Assembly: GCF_056712565.1 (NCBI RefSeq)
Contig: NZ_CM160072.1
Length of the DNA: 64,000 bases
Strand: one strand, 5' to 3'
In this document: piece after piece, positions 2,431 through 58,289 of the stretch
Position numbering within the stretch: the stretch's first letter is position 1
Layout: every line of letters starts with the position of its first letter
Program-made: the position numbers and the translations under genes
Notes under the pieces: model-generated
Database searches by the model: none
What the model saw: the letters and a program-made list of their open reading frames with translations, nothing else
What the model was told of the DNA's origin: nothing

Positions 2431-3388
2431 AGCACTACTGAACGCGGGACGTCAGACGTTAATGCTGGAGTTGCAGGAAGCAAGCCATTTACCGGAACGT
2501 CTGGGCGATGATTTCGTTCGCGCCGCCAATATCATCCTGCACTGCGAAGGCAAAGTGGTGGTTTCGGGAATTGGCAAATCGGGCCACATTGGTAAGAAAA
2601 TCGCCGCAACGCTTGCCAGCACCGGCACACCGGCTTTTTTTGTCCATCCGGCAGAAGCACTGCACGGCGATCTGGGGATGATTGAAAGCCGCGATGTGAT
2701 GCTGTTTATCTCTTATTCCGGTGGCGCGAAGGAACTGGATCTCATTATTCCGCGTCTGGAAGACAAATCTATCGCGCTGCTGGCAATGACCGGAAAACCG
2801 ACGTCACCGCTGGGCCTGGCGGCGAAAGCGGTGCTGGATATCTCCGTAGAGCGCGAAGCCTGCCCGATGCACCTTGCGCCGACCTCCAGCACCGTGAATA
2901 CCCTGATGATGGGCGACGCGCTGGCGATGGCGGTCATGCAGGCGCGCGGATTTAATGAAGAAGATTTTGCCCGCTCCCACCCAGCCGGGGCACTGGGCGC
3001 TCGCTTGCTGAACAAAGTGCATCATCTTATGCGTCGTGACGATGCCATCCCGCAGGTGGCGTTAACCGCCAGCGTGATGGACGCAATGCTGGAACTTAGC
3101 CGCACCGGTTTAGGTCTGGTGGCAGTGTGCGATGATCAACGACTGGTGAAAGGCGTCTTTACCGACGGTGATTTACGTCGCTGGCTGGTTGGCGGCGGCG
3201 CACTCACCACGCCAGTCAATGAAGCGATGACGGTCGGCGGCACCACGTTGCAATCGCAAAGCCGTGCCATCGACGCCAAAGAAATCCTGATGAAACGCAA
3301 AATCACCGCCGCACCGGTAGTGGATGAAAACGGCAAACTCACCGGCGCAATTAACCTGCAGGATTTCTATCAGGCCGGGATTATTTAA
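2423..3388 (+). CDS. gutQ: D-arabinose 5-phosphate isomerase (SIS domain plus CBS pair)
   Basis: 321-aa ORF overlapping the srlR stop by 8 nt; SIS-domain motif ([14 protein letters not shown]) and C-terminal CBS region; matches recalled GutQ. Confidence 0.92.
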
Positions 3389-4899
3389 TCCTTCAGCCCC
3401 AGACGTTTCGCCAGCCGATGCAGGTTGGCGACGTCGGTTTCCAGCATCCGCGCACAGGCGGCCCAGTTGTGATGATTTTGCGCCAGTGCCTGACGAATGG
3501 TTTCACGCTGGAACGCTTCTGTCGCTTCACGCAGGTTTTGCTTAACAACGGGCACCGCCGCCGCTTCTGGCGGCGGCAACGTCACCTCAGGAAAAGCAAA
3601 ATGTTGCGCCTCAAGAATCACTTCATCGCCGCTGCGGGTGGCTCTCGACAATACTACCGCCCGATGAATAGCATGTTCCAGTTCGCGCACGTTTCCCGGA
3701 AAATTGTAGTGTTGCAGTAAATTTCGCGCTCCGGCACTTAATACCACGCGGGAGAGCCCCAGCCGCAAACGACACTGCTCGCAGAAATACCCCGCCAGCA
3801 GAATGACATCATCGCCCCGCTCACGCAGCGGCGGCACTGAAAGTGGAAACACGCTCAGGCGGTGGAACAAGTCAGCGCGAAATCGCCCTGCCAGTACCTC
3901 TTCGCGTAAGTCACGGTTAGTCGCCGCCAGCACGCGCACATCGACCCGCAAACTGCGGTCATCGCCAACGCGTTGAATATCGCCATACTGCAACACCCTC
4001 AGCAGCTTGGCCTGCAATGCCAACGACAACTCGCCGATCTCATCGAGAAACAGCGTGCCGTTATCCGCCATTTCAAACTTCCCGCTGCGGTTACTGATAG
4101 CACCAGTAAACGCCCCTTTCACATGCCCGAACAACTCACTTTCCGCCACACTTTCCGGCAGTGCGGCACAGTTGAGATAGACCAGCGGATTCACCGCCCG
4201 TGGCGAGGCTTCATGAATCGCTTTCGCCACCAGCTCCTTACCGGTTCCCGTCTCACCGCTAATTAAAACGTTGAGATCGGATGCCGCCACAATCTCAATC
4301 TCTTTTTTCAATTGCGTCATGCCAGGGGACAAACCAATCATCTGCGTCTGTTTCACCGCTTCAAACGGCGCGGCATCGCCTGGCAGCATATTCTGGCTTT
4401 CCAGTTGTTCAATCAGCAATGCATTGCTTAACGCTCCCGCCGCCAGTGCGGCAATCAGCCGTAGCTCTTCGTCGCTGAAAACATCGAACTGATCGGGCTG
4501 CATCCCGTCGAGCGTCAAGGCACCGATCAGGTTTTGCCCGGCAAACAACGGCAAACCAACGCAGGCGTGAACCTTCAGACTCTCCTGCCCTGGAATCAAA
4601 CCGTCATAAGGATCGGGCAATTCGCTGTCTGCGGGAAAGCGCACCACATCACCCGCGCGGGCAATCGCTTCCAGCCGTGGATGACCTTCCAGCGCAAAGC
4701 GTCTACCGAGTACATCCTTCGCCAGCCCGTCGATGGCAAGCGGAATAAACTGCCGCGAGTCGTAACGTAGCAACGCAGACGCATCGCACTCCAGCACCTG
4801 ACGCAGCGTGGTGATCAGGCGCTGAAAACGATCCTGATGACCAATCCCACGCTGCAATTCGATGGCGATATTCGCCAGCACATCAACGGAAAAACTCAT
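3385..4899 (-). CDS. norR: Sigma54-dependent nitric-oxide-responsive transcriptional activator (GAF-AAA+-HTH)
   Basis: 504-aa ORF with sigma54-interaction AAA+ motifs ([14 protein letters not shown]) and C-terminal HTH; divergent from norVW. Confidence 0.93.
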
Positions 4900-4911
4900 C
4901 TTTGCCTCACT

Positions 4912-4967
4912 GTCAATTTGACTATAGATATTGTCATATCGACCATTTTATTGATAGTCATTTTGAC
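4912..4967. promoter_or_regulatory. Three NorR enhancer sites (GT-N7-AC) in the norR-norV intergenic region
   Basis: GTCAATTTGAC (4912-4922), GTCATATCGAC (4933-4943), GTCATTTTGAC (4957-4967): three inverted-repeat GT-N7-AC motifs, the established NorR binding architecture. Confidence 0.85.
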
Positions 4968-5022
4968 TACTCATTAATGAGCACAATTTTATTTATAGAG
5001 TAAAAACAATTAGATAAAAAAC

Positions 5023-5038
5023 TGGCACGCAATCTGCA
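5023..5038 (+). promoter_or_regulatory. Sigma54 (-24/-12) promoter of norVW
   Basis: TGGCACGCAATCTGCA: GG and GC elements at canonical spacing, ~48 nt upstream of the norV ATG and downstream of the NorR sites. Confidence 0.85.
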
Positions 5039-5085
5039 ATTAGCAAGACATCTTTTTAGAACACGCTGAATAAATTGAGGTTGCT

Positions 5086-6525
5086 ATGTCTATTGTGGTG
5101 AAAAATAACATTCATTGGGTTGGTCAACGTGACTGGGAAGTGCGTGATTTTCACGGTACAGAATATAAAACGCTGCGCGGCAGCAGCTACAACAGCTACC
5201 TCATCCGCGAAGAAAAAAACGTGCTGATCGACACCGTCGACCATAAATTCAGCCGCGAATTTGTGCAGAACCTGCGTAATGAAATCGATCTGGCGGATAT
5301 CGATTACATCGTAATTAACCATGCTGAAGAGGACCACGCCGGGGCGCTGACCGAACTGATGGCACAAATTCCCGATACGCCGATCTACTGTACTGCCAAC
5401 GCTATCGACTCGATAAATGGTCATCACCATCATCCGGAGTGGAATTTTAATGTAGTGAAAACTGGCGACACGCTGGATATCGGCAACGGCAAACAACTCA
5501 TTTTTGTCGAAACGCCAATGCTGCACTGGCCGGACAGCATGATGACTTACCTGACAGGCGACGCGGTGCTGTTCAGTAACGATGCTTTCGGTCAGCACTA
5601 CTGCGACGAGCATCTGTTCAACGATGAAGTGGATCAGACTGAGCTTTTCGAGCAGTGCCAGCGTTACTACGCCAATATCCTGACGCCGTTCAGCCGCCTG
5701 GTAACGCCGAAAATTACCGAGATCCTGGGCTTTAACTTGCCAGTCGATATGATAGCGACCTCTCACGGCGTGGTATGGCGCGATAACCCGACGCAAATTG
5801 TCGAGCTGTACCTGAAATGGGCGGCGGATTATCAGGAAGACAGAATCACCATTGTCTACGACACCATGTCGAATAACACCCGCATGATGGCTGACGCTAT
5901 CGCCCAGGGGATTGCGGAAACCGACCCACGCGTGGCGGTGAAAATTTTCAACGTCGCCCGAAGCGATAAAAACGAAATCCTGACCAATGTCTTCCGCTCA
6001 AAAGGCGTACTGGTCGGCACTTCTACGATGAATAATGTGATGATGCCGAAAATCGCCGGGCTGGTGGAGGAGATGACCGGATTACGCTTCCGTAACAAAC
6101 GCGCCAGCGCTTTCGGCTCTCACGGCTGGAGCGGCGGTGCGGTGGATCGTCTTTCCACGCGCCTGCAGGATGCGGGTTTCGAAATGTCGCTTAGCCTGAA
6201 AGCCAAATGGCGACCAGACCAGGACGCTCTGGAGTTATGTCGTGAACACGGTCGCGAAATCGCCCGTCAGTGGGCGCTCGCGCCGCTGCCACAGAGCACG
6301 GTGAATACGGTGGTTGAAGAAGAAACCTCTGCCGCCACGACGGCTGACCTCGGCCCACGGATGCAATGCAGCGTCTGCCAGTGGATTTACGATCCGGCAA
6401 AAGGCGAGCCAATGCAGGACGTTGCGCCAGGAACGCCGTGGAGTGAAGTCCCGGATAACTTCCTGTGCCCGGAATGCTCTCTCGGCAAAGACGTCTTTGA
6501 CGAACTGGCATCGGAGGCAAAATGA
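5086..6525 (+). CDS. norV: Anaerobic nitric oxide reductase flavorubredoxin
   Basis: 479-aa ORF with metallo-beta-lactamase-like di-iron domain, flavodoxin domain and C-terminal rubredoxin Cys pairs (CSVC...CPEC); matches recalled NorV. Confidence 0.94.
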
Positions 6526-7655
6526 GCAACGGCATTGTGATCATTGGTTCGGGCTTCGCCGCCCGCCAACTGGTGAAAAATATTCGCAAACAGGACGCCA
6601 GTATTCCATTAACCCTGATTGCCGCCGACAGCATGGATGAGTACAACAAACCTGACCTCAGCCATGTTATCAGTCAGGGGCAACGTGCCGACGACCTTAC
6701 CCGCCAGACGGCAGGTGAATTTGCCGAGCAGTTTAATCTGCGCCTGTTTCCGCACACCTGGGTAACGGATATCGATGCCGAAGCCCATGTGGTGAAAAGT
6801 CAGAATAATCAGTGGCAATACGACAAGTTAGTGCTGGCAACCGGTGCCAGCGCCTTTGTCCCGCCAGTGCCCGGGCGTGAGTTAATGCTGACGTTAAATA
6901 GTCAGCAAGAGTATCGCGCCTGTGAAACGCAACTGCGGGATGCCCGACGCGTGTTGATTGTCGGCGGTGGTTTGATTGGTAGTGAACTGGCGATGGATTT
7001 TTGTCGGGCAGGCAAAGCGGTCACGCTAATCGACAACGCTGCCAGTATTCTGGCGTCGTTAATGCCACCGGAAGTCAGCAGCCGCTTGCAGCATCGGTTG
7101 ACGGAGATGGGCGTTCATCTGCTGTTGAAATCTCAGTTGCAGGGACTAGAAAAAACAGATTCTGGCATTCTGGCAACGCTGGACCGCCAGCGCTGCATCG
7201 AAGTGGATGCGGTAATTGCCGCCACCGGACTGCGCCCGGAAACCGCCCTGGCACGACGCGCCGGGCTGACGATTAATCGCGGCGTTTGCGTCGATAGTTA
7301 TCTGCAAACCAGTAATGCCGATATTTATGCGCTGGGCGATTGCGCGGAAATTAACGGTCAGGTATTGCCGTTCCTCCAGCCGATTCAACTTAGCGCGATG
7401 GTGCTGGCAAAAAATCTTCTCGGCAATAACACGCCGCTGAAACTCCCGGCGATGCTGGTGAAAATCAAAACGCCGGAATTACCGCTGCATCTGGCAGGCG
7501 AAACCCAGCGTCAGGATTTACGCTGGCAAATTAATACCGAACGCCAGGGAATGGTGGCGCGCGGCGTTGACGATGCTGACCAGCTTCGCGCCTTTGTGGT
7601 CAGTGAGGATCGGATGAAAGAGGCATTTGGATTGTTGAAAACGTTGTCGATGTAG
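6522..7655 (+). CDS. norW: NADH:flavorubredoxin reductase
   Basis: 377-aa ORF overlapping the norV stop by 4 nt; FAD/NAD-binding GxGxxG motifs ([16 protein letters not shown]). Confidence 0.93.
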
Positions 7656-10959: not shown

Positions 10960-11970
10960 TTATCGCGAAAGAGCAATGAGTGAGCCGCGGCGGATTAGTT
11001 TTCCGCTGAAGGTTTTCGGCGGTGAGAAATCCCCGCCATCGAGCATAAAAATCAGCCGTCCAATAATTTCCTGAATCATCTCAGTCACCGGAATTTTTAC
11101 GCTGGAGAGCGCCGGAACGATGTAGGGGGCAATAGCGATATCATCGAATCCGATAACTGACACCTGCTCTGGCACCGCTACGCCGCGCTCGTGTAACGCT
11201 TTGATCGCACCTATCGCCATATCGTCGTTACTGGCAACTAACGCGCTAAATTTAGCCCCACGTTCGAGCAACGTTTCTACCCCTTCGGCACCGCTGGCGG
11301 GCGTCCATTTACCGTTAGCGATAAGTTTTTCATTGAACGCAATACCATGCTGCGCCAGCGCGTCTTTATATCCGGCAAGACGTTCAATGCTGGTGGGGGA
11401 ATCCATCGAGCCGGTAAGGAAAGCAATCTCCTGATGTCCGGCGGTTATCAACTCTGCCACGGCGTTAAAGCTGGTCTGTTTATGATCGCACCAGACGCTA
11501 TGGCTGCTGTTTTTGCGCAGGCGGCGATTAAGCACCATTATCGGCTGACTGTGTGCGTCAATGATGTCATCAATCTCATCCACGCTTAAAAAGCGCGGGT
11601 AAATCATGATGGCGTCGCAGCGCAAATCCAGCAGATACTGAATCGCCTGGCGCTCTTCTTCGGCGCTATGTTTACCATCTGCCAATAGCAACTGTCGCCC
11701 TTTCTCTTCCGCCATTCGCGCGGCATGAAACAGTAATTCACTAAAATAAATGCCATGGTAAAGCGTGTTGGTCACGACCAGCCCCAGCGTCTGAGTACTC
11801 TTCGCCGACAGATTGCGCGCCAGCAAGTTTGGACGGTAACCGCTCTCTTCTACCGCCTGAAACACGCGATCTTTAGTCTCCTGGCTGACGTAGCCATTAC
11901 CTGAAAGCACGCGGGAAACGGTCGCTTTTGAAACCCCGGCGCGCTTCGCCACTTCCAGCATCGTCGTCAT
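10960..11970 (-). CDS. ascG: LacI-family repressor of the cryptic asc operon
   Basis: N-terminal LacI-type HTH (MLEVAKRAGVSKATVSRVL) plus periplasmic-binding-protein-like domain; start placed at MTTMLEV (336 aa); divergent from ascFB. Confidence 0.88.
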   Translation of the reverse strand: MTTMLEVAKRAGVSKATVSRVLSGNGYVSQETKDRVFQAVEESGYRPNLLARNLSAKSTQTLGLVVTNTLYHGIYFSELLFHAARMAEEKGRQLLLADGKHSAEEERQAIQYLLDLRCDAIMIYPRFLSVDEIDDIIDAHSQPIMVLNRRLRKNSSHSVWCDHKQTSFNAVAELITAGHQEIAFLTGSMDSPTSIERLAGYKDALAQHGIAFNEKLIANGKWTPASGAEGVETLLERGAKFSALVASNDDMAIGAIKALHERGVAVPEQVSVIGFDDIAIAPYIVPALSSVKIPVTEMIQEIIGRLIFMLDGGDFSPPKTFSGKLIRRGSLIALSR

Positions 11971-12057
11971 CATTTTCATCCCTTTACACGCAATCAACGC
12001 AGTGTACTGCACCGTTTGCCGATTGTCCTTGCGCAATCGGCGGGAAAAATATTCAGG

Positions 12058-12144
12058 TGACCGGTTTCACAAATATAAAAAATGAACAATTAACTCTCTT
12101 GCTTATTGCATGTTAACTATTCATGATTTTGTGAAACCGGTTTC
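12058..12144. promoter_or_regulatory. Pair of palindromic LacI-family operators in the ascG-ascF divergent region
   Basis: TGACCGGTTTCA (12058-12069) and TGAAACCGGTTTC (12132-12144): near-perfect palindromes centred on CCGG, typical GalR/LacI-family operators. Confidence 0.75.
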
Positions 12145-12229
12145 CCAATTCCGTTTCAGCATCGGCATTTTTCCGTCACGTCGACTGATAACAACTACAT
12201 CTACCCTACTGATAACAGGATAAAATCCG

Positions 12230-15120
<2,891 letters not shown>

Positions 15121-15128
15121 GTAACCGT

Positions 15129-15192
15129 GCCGGATGCGGCGTGAACGCCTTATCCGGCCTACAAGGCCCGATAAGCGTTGCGCATCGGGCAA
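15129..15192. repeat. REP element pair downstream of ascB
   Basis: GCCGGATGCGGCGTGAACGCCTTATCCGGCCTACA followed by GGCCCGATAAGCGTTGCGCATCGGGCAA; REP-type palindromes. Confidence 0.8.
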
Positions 15193-15217
15193 TCTTGGGT
15201 TTGGCATCAGTCAAAAA

Positions 15218-23273: not shown

Positions 23274-23735
23274 TCATGCTGCCGGGCTTTGTCCCTTTAC
23301 CAGTTGGCTTAAATTCACCGGCACATTGTTTTCAATGGCGGTGTATAAGCTGTCGTAAACGCCAGCGATTTTTTCGAGATAGTGTTCCAGAACCTGTTCG
23401 CGATCGCGGATGTTGACCTTGCCATCAATCATGCCGTCAATGCTCAGTTGCGCCTGCGCAATCCGCTGTTTGTCTTCACCCTCTTTCGTTTCGACGTAAT
23501 ACTCGATGGTGTGGCTGTTAAAGCCATCCGCCAGGGTGACGTAAATGCGAAAATGTTCAAAAAGGACGAAACAGAGTTCTTTGTCCGGCGCGCAGCTCAT
23601 GGCGTGATGCAGGCGCGCTTTCGATAACGTGATCCCCTGAACCAGCGAATTGCAGTAGATGTGCCACTGGTCCTGTAGGCGACGATGCCGCTGTGCGATG
23701 TAATCGGCTTTCTCGCTTATTTCCCAAATAGTCAT
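23274..23735 (-). CDS. hycA: Formate hydrogenlyase regulatory protein
   Basis: 153-aa ORF matching recalled HycA; first gene of the hyc operon, divergent from hypA. Confidence 0.9.
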   Translation of the reverse strand: MTIWEISEKADYIAQRHRRLQDQWHIYCNSLVQGITLSKARLHHAMSCAPDKELCFVLFEHFRIYVTLADGFNSHTIEYYVETKEGEDKQRIAQAQLSIDGMIDGKVNIRDREQVLEHYLEKIAGVYDSLYTAIENNVPVNLSQLVKGQSPAA

Positions 23736-23770
23736 TGTCAGGTTACCCGTTTAACAGAGATGCCAGCTTT

Positions 23771-23787
23771 AAGCATTTTCTGTGCCA
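23771..23787 (-). promoter_or_regulatory. Sigma54 promoter of the hyc operon
   Basis: Minus-strand TGGCACAGAAAATGCT (-24 GG / -12 GC) ~35 nt upstream of the hycA ATG. Confidence 0.75.
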
Positions 23788-23834: not shown

Positions 23835-23874
23835 TTCGTCGCCGTGTCGACGTGTCATTTCGACATCATCGACA
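23835..23874. promoter_or_regulatory. FhlA upstream activating sequences shared by the divergent hyc and hyp promoters
   Basis: TTTCGTCGCCGTGTCGACGTGTCATTTCGACATCATCGACA: repeated TGTCGACA / TCGACA motifs midway between the two sigma54 promoters. Confidence 0.75.
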
Positions 23875-52390: not shown

Positions 52391-53428
52391 ATGTTTTCCG
52401 CATTGCGCCACCGTACCGCTGCCCTGGCGCTCGGCGTATGCTTTATTCTCCCCGTACACGCCTCGTCACCTAAACCTGGCGATTTTGCTAATACCCAGGC
52501 ACGACATATTGCTACTTTCTTTCCGGGACGCATGACCGGAACTCCTGCAGAAATGTTATCTGCCGATTATATTCGCCAACAGTTTCAGCAAATGGGTTAT
52601 CGCAGTGATGTTCGGACATTTAATAGTCGGTATATTTATACCGCCCGCGATAATCGCAAGAGCTGGCATAACGTGACGGGAAGTACGGTGATTGCCGCTC
52701 ATGAAGGCAAAGCGCCGCAGCAGATCATCATTATGGCGCATCTGGATACTTACGCCCCGCTGAGCGATGCTGACGCCGATGCCAATCTCGGCGGGCTAAC
52801 GTTACAAGGAATGGATGATAACGCCGCAGGTTTAGGTGTCATGCTGGAACTGGCTGAACACCTGAAAAATACGCCTACCGAGTATGGTATTCGATTTGTG
52901 GCGACCAGCGGCGAAGAGGAAGGAAAATTAGGCGCTGAGAATTTACTCAAGCGGATGAGTGACACCGAAAAGAAAAATACGCTGCTGGTGATTAATCTCG
53001 ATAACTTAATTGTTGGCGATAAGCTGTATTTCAACAGTGGCGTAAACACACCTGAAGCAGTAAGGAAATTAACGCGCGACCGGGCGCTGGCAATTGCCCG
53101 CAGCCATGGAATTGCCGCCACCACAAATCCAGGTTTGAATAAAAACTATCCGAAAGGCACCGGGTGTTGTAATGACGCAGAAATATTCGACAAAGCCGGT
53201 ATTGCTGTACTTTCGGTGGAAGCGACTAACTGGAATCTTGGCAATAAGGATGGTTATCAGCAACGCGCAAAAACAGCCGCATTCCCTGCGGGAAATAGCT
53301 GGCATGACGTAAGACTGGATAATCAACAGCATATTGATAAGGCACTTCCTGGAAGAATAGAACGTCGCTGCCGTGATGTTATGCGGATAATGCTACCGTT
53401 GGTGAAGGAGCTGGCGAAGGCATCTTAA
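52391..53428 (+). CDS. iap: Alkaline phosphatase isozyme conversion aminopeptidase
   Basis: 345-aa ORF with signal peptide and M28-type peptidase motifs. Confidence 0.93.
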   Translation: MFSALRHRTAALALGVCFILPVHASSPKPGDFANTQARHIATFFPGRMTGTPAEMLSADYIRQQFQQMGYRSDVRTFNSRYIYTARDNRKSWHNVTGSTVIAAHEGKAPQQIIIMAHLDTYAPLSDADADANLGGLTLQGMDDNAAGLGVMLELAEHLKNTPTEYGIRFVATSGEEEGKLGAENLLKRMSDTEKKNTLLVINLDNLIVGDKLYFNSGVNTPEAVRKLTRDRALAIARSHGIAATTNPGLNKNYPKGTGCCNDAEIFDKAGIAVLSVEATNWNLGNKDGYQQRAKTAAFPAGNSWHDVRLDNQQHIDKALPGRIERRCRDVMRIMLPLVKELAKAS

Positions 53429-53527
53429 TGGGTTTGAAATGATTACTCCCTTGCCTGCAGGAAATCAATGCCACCAGAAACAGAGTATAAAAAAGGGTGC
53501 AGGAGACCAAACCATCACAATTCAGTA

Positions 53528-53546
53528 CGCGGGGTTTTACCCCGCG
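53528..53546. terminator. GC-rich stem-loop at the 3' end of the hok-like gene
   Basis: CGCGGGG-TTTTA-CCCCGCG (7-bp GC stem) 6 nt beyond the hok-like stop on the minus strand and ~100 nt downstream of iap on the plus strand; no U-tract in either orientation. Confidence 0.55.
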
Positions 53547-53552
53547 TGGTGG

Positions 53553-53705
53553 CTACTTCTTCGATTCGTAAGCGAGAACTGCCTTAAACTCCATACCACG
53601 TTCTCTGATACTCAACTCACACAACGAGTCGCCTACCATCAACGTGAATCCCAGTACTGTACAACACAGTACGATGATTGCCACAAGGGCATATTTTGTC
53701 AGCAT
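53553..53705 (-). CDS. Hok/Gef-family type I toxin (HokE-like small membrane peptide)
   Basis: 50-codon [53 protein letters not shown]: hydrophobic N-terminal helix, conserved Cys in SLCEL, C-terminal AYE motif; GGAGG Shine-Dalgarno 7 nt upstream; GC-rich hairpin just 3' of the stop. Close by eye to recalled chromosomal HokE. Confidence 0.8.
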
Positions 53706-53912
53706 GTCTTGCCTCCCTGCAAAGAAGAGACTAACATCCGAATTGCTTAGGTTCGAACGTAGGCCTCAGGTTGATAGAAATATCGCCTGGGGCTTTTGTC
53801 CATCTGGAACCTCGCGAATGCTTAACGCCAGACAGCCTCAAGCACCCAATGCCATTCTATACCTGTTAATTCTCCCTGCGACGTTCTCGTTTAAATGCCG
53901 GAATGCTGCTCG

Positions 53913-53953
53913 CAAAATAAAAACGCCCCCATCATTTCTGACAGAGGCGTTTA
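53913..53953 (-). terminator. Candidate rho-independent terminator of cysJIH
   Basis: Minus strand AAACGCC...GGCGTTT stem followed by TTTATTTT, 17 nt downstream of the cysH stop. Confidence 0.6.
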
Positions 53954-53969
53954 ATTTATCCGGCAATAT

Positions 53970-54704
53970 TTACCCTTCGTGTAATCCACATTCCCTTTTT
54001 AAGCCAAAGAAACGCGTTTCTTCTTCCGCCATGCCGGGTTCCCATTTACGGGTTGTATGGGTATCGCCCACCGATAAATATCCTTCATCCCATAATGGGT
54101 GATATTTCAGGCCATGTTTTTGCAGGTACTGATAAATAGTTCGGTTATCCCAGTCGATAATCGGCAGCACTTTAAATACGCCACGCTGAATTGCCAGCAC
54201 CGGTAAATTGGCGCGGCTGCCGGATTGTTCACGGCGCAGGCCAGCAAACCAGGTTTGCACATTCAGTTCTTTCAGCGCCCGGTTCATCGGTTCGACTTTG
54301 TTGATGTCATTGTACTTTTCAATGCCTTCAACGCCCTGCTCCCACAGTTTGCCGTAGCGTGCTTCCTGCCAGGCGGCGCTTTCGGTAGCACGGTACACTT
54401 TCAGGTTGAGCTTGAGTTTATCCGTTAACTCGTCAATAAAGCGGTAGGTTTCCGGGAACAGATAGCCGGTATCGGTGAGGATCACTGGAATATCCGGGCG
54501 AATCTGATTCACCAGATGCAGACTCACCGCCGCCTGAATGCCAAAGCTGGAAGAAAGTACATATTCACCGGGCAGATTATCCAGCGCCCAGGCTACGCGG
54601 CCTTCAGCGTCCAGTTTTTCCAGTTGGGCGTTAGTTTCCGCCAGCGCCAGAATCCGGTCTACCTTTGGCAGTTCGTTCAGGGCGTTTAGATCGAGTTTGG
54701 ACAT
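53970..54704 (-). CDS. cysH: Phosphoadenosine phosphosulfate (PAPS) reductase
   Basis: Start at [12 protein letters not shown] (244 aa); the ORF track extends 51 codons upstream. C-terminal catalytic ECGLH motif. Confidence 0.94.
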
Positions 54705-56490: not shown

Positions 56491-58289
56491 TAGTAGACAT
56501 CTCGCTGATAACGGCGCTCTACGCGCAGCTCACTTAAAAATTCATCCGCCGCTTCGGTGTCCATGCCACCAAATTCGGCAATCACTTCCAGAAGTGCCTG
56601 CTCAACGTCTTTCGCCATGCGATTAGCGTCGCCGCAGACATAAATGTGGGCACCGTCATTGATCCAGCGCCACAGCTCTGCGCCCTGTTCGCGCAGTTTG
56701 TCTTGTACGTAAATTTTTTCTTTTTGATCGCGCGACCAGGCGAGATCGATGCGCGTCAGCACGCCTTCTTTGACGTAACGCTGCCATTCCACCTGGTAGA
56801 GGAAATCTTCCGTAAAGTGTGGGTTGCCAAAGAATAGCCAGTTTTTACCCGGCGCTTCGTCGGCAGCACGCTGCTGCATAAAGGCACGGAACGGCGCGAT
56901 GCCGGTGCCAGGGCCAATCATGATCACCGGGGTTTCCGGATTGGTTGGCAGGCGGAAGTTGTCGTTATGTTCGATAAAGACGCGGACTTCACCCTCTTCT
57001 TCCACACGATCCGCGAGGAAGCTGGAGGCACCACCGGCACGGGCGCGGCCTTCCACGTCGTAACGCACCACACCAACGGTAACGTGCACTTCGTTCTCGA
57101 CTTCCGCCTGCGAGGAGGCGATGGAATACAGGCGCGGGGTCAGCGGGCGCAGCAGATTAATCAGCGCTTCGGCATCCAGTTGCGCCGGAGAGAAACGCAC
57201 CATGTCGACAATCGGCGTCGTCGCGGCGTAATGCTGTAACTTCGCTTTATCGCCCACCAGCGGCAGCAGCGTTTCGCTGCGGGTAAGCGTGGCATAGTTC
57301 TCAACAATGTTGGCGGTGTTGACGGTCAGTTCGAAGTGCCACTGTAGCGCTTCGTTCAGAGGCAACGTTTTGCCCTCGACGGTGACAGGTTCATCGCCTT
57401 TCAGCCACAGCAGTTCGACAAGTTCTTTCACCAGTGCCGGATCGTTCTGATACCAGACGCCCAACGCGTCACCCGGCTGGTAACGCAGGCCAGAGTCACC
57501 TAAGTCAATTTCAATGTGACGAACGTCTTTTTCAGAGTTACGCCCGGTAATTTTCTGGTTAACCGAAAGGCTGGCCGCCAGCGGCGCGTCTTTGCTATAC
57601 GGGCTGGTGTGGATTTCATTTACCGTGCCAGTAGCGACGGATTGCGAAGGTGCCGCGACAGGCGCACGCGATTTAAGCGCATCAACCACGCGGGCGCGCC
57701 ACTCGCTGGCAGCAGCCTGGTATTCAACGTCGGCATCGACACGGTCGAGCAGGCGTTCACCGCCCAGTTCCGCCAGCTTACTGTCAAAATCTTTCCCGGA
57801 CTGGCAGAAAAATTCATAAGAGCTATCGCCGAGGCTAAACACGGCAAACGCGGTGTTTTCCAGCTTTGGCGCTTTTTTGGAGAACAGGAACTTATGCAGC
57901 GCGACGGCTTCTTCCGGCGGTTCCCCTTCCCCTTGCGTTGACGTCACCACGATAAGCAGTTTTTCGCTGGCGATTTGTTTGAATTTATAGTCACCCGCGT
58001 TCACCAGCTTAACGTTCAGTTTTGCCGCTAATAAATCATCGCGTAATGCTTCAGCAACCCGGCGCGCATTGCCGGTTTGCGAGGCGGAGATAATAGTTAT
58101 ACCCGGCATTTCTGCGGCGGGCGCTGGCGTCGCTGCAAGCGCAGCAGGCTGCTGGTTGAGCACGCCCCAGAAATAGCCAGAAACCCAGGCAAGCTGGGTA
58201 GGAGTTAAATCGGTCGTGGCCGCCTGAAGGCGTGCCAGTTGCTCCGGGTTCAACGGAAGCAACGCGGAAGGTGGGACCTGTGTCGTCAT
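56490..58289 (-). CDS. cysJ: Sulfite reductase flavoprotein alpha subunit
   Basis: 599-aa ORF; flavodoxin-like FMN domain plus FAD/NADPH reductase domain. Confidence 0.95.

Follow-up and report, generated by a model that had tools for sequence, protein, structure and literature searches.

The 186 bp that lie between the divergent norR and norV genes, at positions 4900–5085 of the window (the whole 64,000-nucleotide stretch of DNA that was analysed), are almost certainly the E. coli norR–norVW divergent control region, built around an enhancer-dependent sigma54 promoter. The element is already known: it is the published norVW promoter, real and intact, and nothing in the window's copy of it is new. 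Three NorR boxes, an AT-rich stretch and a -24/-12 element are found here between two genes of known function, and the identification rests on their motif scores, on their fixed geometry among relatives and on a body of published work performed on DNA identical at the boxes and the promoter.

The norR–norV locus

The region corresponds exactly to the norR–norV spacer, being bounded by the norR start codon, which ends at 4899 (minus strand), and by the norV ATG at 5086, and its G+C content is 31% as opposed to 53% for the whole window. The product of norR matches NCBIfam equivalog NF003451 at 825 bits (cut-off 476), the model spanning residues 2–503, and Pfam assigns a GAF domain to residues 22–154 and an AAA+ domain (Sigma54_activat) to residues 187–353, the GAFTGA motif occupying residues 262–267; a search of the protein for a C-terminal HTH returned none from Pfam at E <= 0.001. 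NorR also carries R75, D96, D99, C113 and D131, which are reported to be the iron ligands (Tucker et al. 2008). The window's NorR is intact, its GAF domain, AAA+ domain and GAFTGA motif all being there. On the other side of the spacer, norV and norW (5086–7655) make up the regulated operon and code for the NO-detoxifying enzyme, and the RefSeq annotation of identical DNA gives the same gene names throughout. The block TGCCTCAC at the putative norR ribosome-binding site is kept across a 66-sequence alignment, and the block TTGAGGTTGCTATG at the ribosome-binding site of norV is strongly conserved. The genes rpoN and ihfA/ihfB, which are near-universal in E. coli, all lie outside the 64-kb window. 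Coordinates of the features discussed are collected in Table 1.

Table 1. Features of the norR–norVW region in the window, with the blocks used for megablast searches
Feature	Position or length	Strand	Description
norR	3385–4899	-	NO-sensing enhancer-binding protein, 504 aa: GAF, AAA+ sigma54-interaction domain, C-terminal DNA-binding region
norR ribosome-binding site (predicted)	4905–4908	-	GAGG, 5 nt 5' of the norR ATG; putative role
NorR site 3 (promoter-distal)	4912–4922	.	GTCAATTTGAC; centre about -132 from the predicted start; 24.6 bits
NorR site 2	4933–4943	.	GTCATATCGAC; centre about -111; 22.9 bits
NorR site 1 (promoter-proximal)	4957–4967	.	GTCATTTTGAC; centre about -87; 26.0 bits, best in the window
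AT-rich spacer	4968–5022	.	55 bp, 80% A+T (20% G+C against 53% in the window); reported IHF binding/bending region
Degenerate IHF-like core (putative)	5004–5016	+	AAACAATTAGATA; 2 mismatches to WATCAANNNNTTR; about -45 to -33
sigma54 promoter	5023–5038	+	TGGCACGCAATCTGCA; GG of -25/-24 at 5024–5025, GC of -13/-12 at 5036–5037
norVW transcription start (predicted)	5049	+	37-nt leader; start rule of Bonocora et al.
norV ribosome-binding site	5077–5080	+	GAGG; leader ends GAGG-N5-ATG
norV	5086–6525	+	Flavorubredoxin, full-length 479 aa; NCBIfam NF003954, 1045 bits against a cut-off of 711
norW	6522–7655	+	NADH:flavorubredoxin reductase; NCBIfam NF003437, 686 bits against a cut-off of 392
Enhancer block	66 bp		megablast: 5417 of 5426 E. 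coli genomes
AT-rich stretch	55 bp		megablast: 1313 of 5426 E. coli genomes
Promoter and leader block	68 bp		megablast: 5425 of 5426 E. coli genomes

NorR binding sites

The original prediction, made from the sequence alone, described three GT-N7-AC inverted repeats some 21–24 bp apart, and these are indeed the sole three in the spacer, separated by 21 and 24 bp from start to start. In its bare form the GT-N7-AC motif is not enriched in the window (205 sites as against about 194 expected), and clusters of it are uninformative, the densest 60-bp span having held at least three sites in 175 of 200 simulated windows. The longer motif common to the boxes, GTCA-N4-GAC, gave 18 strand hits in the window against 6.0 expected, and no simulated window out of 200 held three copies of it in a 60-bp span. 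A NorR matrix was built from 157 distinct boxes (19-mers) drawn from non-Escherichia relatives only, the lowest-scoring of its training sites having 15.5 bits. It places the three spacer boxes first in the window, with the scores listed in Table 1, and the next unrelated match reaches 12.6 bits; the matrix scan that had been proposed as a check on the boxes thus recovers them as the top three, all remaining unrelated matches falling below the training minimum.

Several further sequences resembling a regulatory site were considered and rejected. A perfect GTCA-N3-TGAC palindrome, GTCAACGTGAC, is found at 5123–5133 within norV codons 13–17 (GQRDW) and might be mistaken for a fourth box, but it needs a GGT glycine codon at a place where relatives freely use GGC, GGA and GGG, and it is kept in 26 of 79 of them. 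Because the third base of this codon varies so freely the palindrome is regarded as coincidental, and it does not appear among the top 12 matches of the NorR matrix in the window. The sequence GTCATTTCGAC (23854–23864, in the hycA–hypA spacer) was dismissed as a NorR site at 12.6 bits, below the training minimum, and is located within the FhlA enhancer region. The published FhlA consensus is CATTTCGTACGAAATG, and the boxes of these two neighbouring enhancer-binding proteins, NorR and FhlA, have the GTCATTT-GAC pattern in common. Finally, the perfect 12-bp palindrome CTCATTAATGAG at 4970–4981 is imperfect in MG1655 and unconserved, and it was not retained as an element.

The sigma54 promoter and the predicted transcription start

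A canonical -24/-12 element had likewise been predicted for the norR–norV spacer, and it is present there, directed towards norV, as TGGCACGCAATCTGCA. Scanning for sigma54 sites employed a matrix derived from 25 published Salmonella sites (PMC3844500, Table 3), with norV omitted, for which the median score of the training sites is 19.8 bits. With 20.7 bits TGGCACGCAATCTGCA exceeds this median and ranks second among about 128,000 window positions, so that the element, too, was recovered by the scan proposed for it. The other matches in the top five belong to the hypA (23901), hycA (23770) and hydN (10847) promoters and to a site inside hycA (23649), and the three known promoters serve as internal positive controls for the matrix. 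A site of at least 20.7 bits on either strand arose in 9 of 200 simulated 64-kb windows, from which the chance of encountering one within the 186-bp spacer and in the right orientation is estimated arithmetically to be of order 1e-4. The consensus TGGCAC-N5-TTGCW with one mismatch showed no enrichment across the window, with 6 hits against 4.0 expected.

Experimental support for the promoter comes from several sources. The sigma54 ChIP-seq motif OS25 of Bonocora et al. 2015, CTGGCACGCAATCTGCA, assigned by them to norV, is identical to window positions 5022–5038; EcoCyc lists the promoter as experimentally confirmed, and RpoN gSELEX gave a peak within the norR/norV spacer. Bonocora et al. 2015 place the start 19 bp 3' of the motif centre and give the start-to-norV distance as 37 bp, with which the start predicted here by their rule agrees (5086 - 5049 = 37). 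The block ACATCTTTTT (5047–5057), which surrounds the predicted start, is well kept across genera, its core (C/T)ATC being found even in distant loci. A search of positions 4700–5400 for a structured leader RNA gave no Rfam match at E up to 1.

The AT-rich stretch and IHF

The original prediction further held that an AT-rich region between boxes and promoter was suited to IHF-induced bending, and that the whole architecture could be read directly from the sequence. The boxes, the -24/-12 element and the base composition, at 80% A+T over 55 bp, bear this out, whereas the IHF part was overstated, since the best plus-strand IHF core in the stretch is a two-mismatch one and the consensus is degenerate in Escherichia. 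Over the whole window the IHF consensus with up to one mismatch is not enriched (56 hits as compared with 46.7 expected). The only spacer match in that scan, on the minus strand at 4944–4956 between boxes 2 and 1, was set aside as uninformative because its score hangs on the strain-specific T at position 4949.

The best IHF match is located 18–19 nt 5' of TGGCA in 62 of 79 relatives, 26 of the matches being perfect and 30 having one mismatch, and this recurrence at the homologous position indicates an IHF-like core that is conserved in the family and degenerate in Escherichia. Near-perfect cores such as AATCAATAAATTA are found in most genera, and every Escherichia sequence examined has two mismatches. 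For E. coli itself, PMC2831303, citing Tucker 2004, places IHF binding in the interval from the boxes to the start site. In light of this published binding the weak core becomes a detail of position and affinity, and the architecture stands.

Conservation and variation

A NorR protein search that covered a single genome of each species yielded 80 Enterobacterales loci representing more than 25 genera. Measured from the norR start, the three boxes have identical offsets, with spacings of 21 and 24 bp, in 78 of the 80; in the alignment their GTC and GAC are invariant, and the central five bases as well as the DNA between the boxes vary. All 79 loci whose sequence extends far enough contain TGGCA, and the distance from the start of box 1 to TGGCA is 64–67 bp in 78 of these 79. 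Within Escherichia (E. coli strains, E. whittamii and E. albertii) all substitutions fall outside the boxes and the promoter. Against MG1655 the spacer shows four base differences, the window having T for G at 4949, A for G at 4980, C for T at 4984 and T for C at 5011. The boxes and the -24/-12 element are free of them; 4949 lies between boxes 2 and 1 and 5011 inside the IHF-like core, and all four are outside the functional elements.

At the level of the species, the 301 bp spanning 4850–5150 have a counterpart of 90–100% identity in 5425 of 5426 complete E. coli genomes, always annotated norR/norV, and the identity is at least 95% in all but two records. The megablast counts for the separate blocks (1313 genomes for the AT-rich stretch, against 5417 and 5425 for its neighbours) show that this stretch is kept in length and composition and not in sequence. 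One copy of the norR–norV spacer is listed on a plasmid record, and the region is missing from one of the 5426 complete genomes.

Two kinds of variation deserve separate mention. At the -12 position, TTGAT (with GA for the canonical GC) is found in 40 of 79 loci, among them those of Enterobacter, Klebsiella, Kosakonia and Lelliottia, and CTGCA is limited to Escherichia, Citrobacter, Salmonella, Kluyvera and a few others; TTGAT has a precedent with ChIP support at Salmonella STM0649 (PMC3844500). The other variant is E. coli AF3 (NZ_OZ547117.1), the last-ranked of the 5426 records in the 301-bp search, which has an exact 45-bp deletion (21 + 24) relative to window positions 4912–4956 and is left with one box and an otherwise intact promoter. 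Judging by its length the deletion is consistent with recombination between NorR boxes, and it may also be an assembly artefact; by analogy with the published mutagenesis, norVW should be non-inducible in this strain.

Agreement with published work on norVW

The window can be superimposed directly on the DNA used in earlier experiments, in which site 1 denotes the promoter-proximal box (4957) and site 3 the one adjoining norR (4912) (PMC2831303). The site-1 21-mer of Tucker et al. 2010, GATAGTCATTTTGACTACTCA, equals window positions 4953–4973 (PMC2831303). Undoing the GG/CC substitutions in the mutagenic primers for sites 2 and 3 likewise yields the window sequence, with the sole exception of the polymorphic base 4949, which belongs to the spacer between boxes 2 and 1 and is covered by both the site-2 and the site-1 primers. 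A GT-N7-AC to GG-N7-CC change in any single box abolished norV-lacZ induction in vivo (Tucker et al. 2010, PMC2831303), and all three boxes are required for full ATPase activity and open-complex formation (PMC2831303). NorR devoid of its GAF domain was seen by EM to form ring oligomers on a 266-bp fragment and produced open complexes on norVW promoter DNA in vitro (PMC2831303); at high NorR concentration open complexes are obtained without IHF (Tucker 2010, PMC2831303), and open-complex assays routinely include it. NorR gSELEX identified the norR–norV spacer as the only bound site in the K-12 genome (PMC8249747), in agreement with the finding that the 64 kb hold no other good NorR box. NO sensing through the iron centre of the GAF domain has been summarised in a review (PMC4987338).

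Binding of NorR and of the sigma54 holoenzyme, as well as NorR- and RpoN-dependent induction by NO, is published for K-12. These properties, together with hexamer assembly, three-site dependence, sigma54 occupancy and NO sensing, are ascribed to the present region on the strength of that literature and would be expected to apply to it, its DNA being identical at every base of the boxes and the promoter. Our own inferences concern where transcription starts, where the IHF core lies and how autoregulation would work.

Proposed mechanism and alternative readings

On the basis of this literature, sigma54 RNA polymerase would occupy the -24/-12 element (5023–5038) as a closed complex unable to open the DNA alone. 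Three NorR dimers would fill the GTCA-N4-GAC boxes (4912, 4933 and 4957) and, bound to DNA, would assemble into a hexameric AAA+ ring poised but inactive at the promoter, while the AT-rich 55 bp and IHF would bend the DNA and allow the ring to contact polymerase. Binding of NO to the iron centre of the GAF domain would then lift repression of the ATPase, and ATP hydrolysis would remodel sigma54, so that the promoter would melt and norVW would be transcribed from about 5049. Since the boxes abut the norR ribosome-binding site, the bound NorR complex probably modulates transcription of norR itself as well. Box 3 is 12 nt from the norR start codon and 3 nt beyond the putative ribosome-binding site, which is too close for the boxes to escape overlap with the leader or promoter of norR. 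A scan of 4850–5150 for a norR sigma70 promoter and terminator gave nothing convincing on the minus strand, together with one plus-strand match at chance level, and the step of autoregulation is thus left without a sequence anchor.

Could the palindromes and the TGGCAC...TGCA string be chance features of AT-rich intergenic DNA with no regulatory role? The simplest motifs would permit it, as bare GT-N7-AC and the one-mismatch TGGCAC-N5-TTGCW consensus both occur about as often as expected and triple clusters of the former are usual in simulations. Yet the cluster of extended boxes was never reproduced by simulation, in 78 of 80 loci the boxes keep their position and core amid variable intervening DNA, and the NorR and sigma54 matrix scores stand far above background. 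Mutagenesis, footprinting, ChIP-seq and gSELEX have moreover been published for the identical sequence, and conservation and the published mutagenesis together refute the notion of chance, to which a practically negligible probability is assigned. A different question is whether the boxes serve mainly as an operator for self-repression by NorR, activation of norVW being secondary or achieved through another enhancer-binding protein. The closeness of box 3 to the norR start codon and the overlap of the norR leader or promoter with the boxes would suit an operator, NorR is annotated as a 'dual regulator' in MG1655, norR and norVW are both NorR-regulated (PMC8249747), and a transplanted NtrC enhancer can drive the norVW promoter. 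However, the published loss of norV induction when a single box is lost refutes the version in which repression is the main function, GAF-less NorR makes open complexes on norVW DNA in vitro, and no norR promoter can be located by sequence. Autoregulation is in any case compatible with activation, as an added role, and a mainly repressive function is accordingly considered very improbable.

The remaining alternative concerns one step of the mechanism and leaves the overall identification unaffected, namely that bending occurs without a specific IHF site, either through intrinsic A-tract curvature or through IHF bound elsewhere in the 55 bp. It is unlikely, although it would account for a core that is near-perfect in most relatives and has two mismatches in all Escherichia examined, and for a stretch that is polymorphic within E. 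coli with its length and A+T content kept. IHF is, on the other side, tolerant of degenerate cores where the context is AT-rich. Open complexes formed without IHF at high NorR concentration (PMC2831303) again suit bending of the non-specific kind, but IHF binding in this very interval is reported for K-12 (PMC2831303, where Tucker 2004 is cited for it), and IHF is a routine component of the open-complex assays. An activating enhancer acting on a sigma54 promoter, with IHF assisting through the AT-rich stretch, is the reading preferred here, and no finding of the analysis contradicts it. The comparative data raise two tentative and rather doubtful ideas, that the Escherichia IHF core may have decayed, and that TTGAT at -12, as found in about half of the genera, could change the stability of the closed complex or the leakiness of the promoter. 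If the core has decayed, bending of the E. coli promoter may depend on base composition, or on IHF bound at a shifted position.

Observations elsewhere in the window

The window spans srlB to ygcW and is as a whole ~99% identical to strain FDAARGOS_536. Two sigma54-like sites are located inside genes, both on the minus strand and in sense orientation. The site TGGCACATCTACTGCAAT (23649–23666, 18.9 bits) lies 70–87 nt into the coding sequence of hycA (23274–23735), with the known hycA promoter site (23770–23787) 121 bp upstream of it, and has no separate entry in the main-text tables of Bonocora 2015. The site TGGCACGGTAAATGAAAT (57613–57630, 15.3 bits) is found inside cysJ, a name absent from the main text of the same E. 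coli ChIP-seq paper (Bonocora 2015).

At 10966–15217, between hydN and hycI, a HigB toxin / HTH antitoxin pair and hypothetical genes occupy the FDAARGOS_536 equivalent in place of the open reading frames seen here. The latter, going by their sizes and the K-12 arrangement, presumably resemble ascG, ascF and ascB. No type I-E CRISPR repeat was detected anywhere in the 64-kb window, and in the iap–cysH interval (about 52400–54000) the collinear reference record has a Hok/Gef toxin gene only. In K-12 this interval is the site of the CRISPR-Cas locus.

Significance

Through this element E. coli controls anaerobic detoxification of NO, a function that bears on survival in macrophages and in the inflamed gut, and the norVW promoter has been widely reused as an NO biosensor part. 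The main value of the present analysis is one of calibration, a published regulatory architecture having been recognised from raw sequence, to the base. Its comparative by-products are modest: a geometry that stays constant in over 25 genera, a lineage-specific TTGAT at -12, the possibly decayed IHF core of Escherichia and a rare 45-bp deletion, all of which could interest those who engineer or compare sigma54 promoters.

Comparison with known systems

The closest known system is norVp of E. coli K-12 (PMC2831303), which is the same locus: the boxes, their 21/24 spacing, the -24/-12 element, the leader and the flanking genes are identical base-for-base. Next to it stands norV of Salmonella enterica (STM2840; PMC3844500, PMC4987338), an orthologous region with three boxes at the same offsets and the promoter TGGCAC-N5-CTGCA, for which the enhancer consensus is given as GT(N)7AC and sigma54 binding has ChIP-chip support (PMC3844500, PMC4987338). 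It differs from the window in the spacers between the boxes and in the N5 of the promoter (TGGCACACTAGCTGCA in LT2), and a good IHF match is situated further upstream in Salmonella. The norV regions of Enterobacter, Klebsiella, Kosakonia and Lelliottia share the three boxes, the distances and the -24 TGGCAC with the window but, unlike it, have TTGAT at -12 and a near-perfect IHF core.

More distant parallels are drawn by citation in PMC2831303. According to the works cited there, GT-N7-AC boxes lie 5' of the sigma54 promoters of norA/norB in Ralstonia eutropha and of hmp/fhp in Pseudomonas aeruginosa, and in R. eutropha all three sites are reported to be necessary, as in E. coli; the targets differ, being a respiratory NO reductase or a flavohaemoglobin. 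For assembly of the activator itself, Tucker 2010 (PMC2831303) offers a comparison with TyrR, an EBP-related protein whose hexamer is nucleated by three consecutive dimer sites. Unlike NorR, TyrR acts at sigma70 promoters and its hexamer represses; the likeness between the two is an analogy of assembly only.
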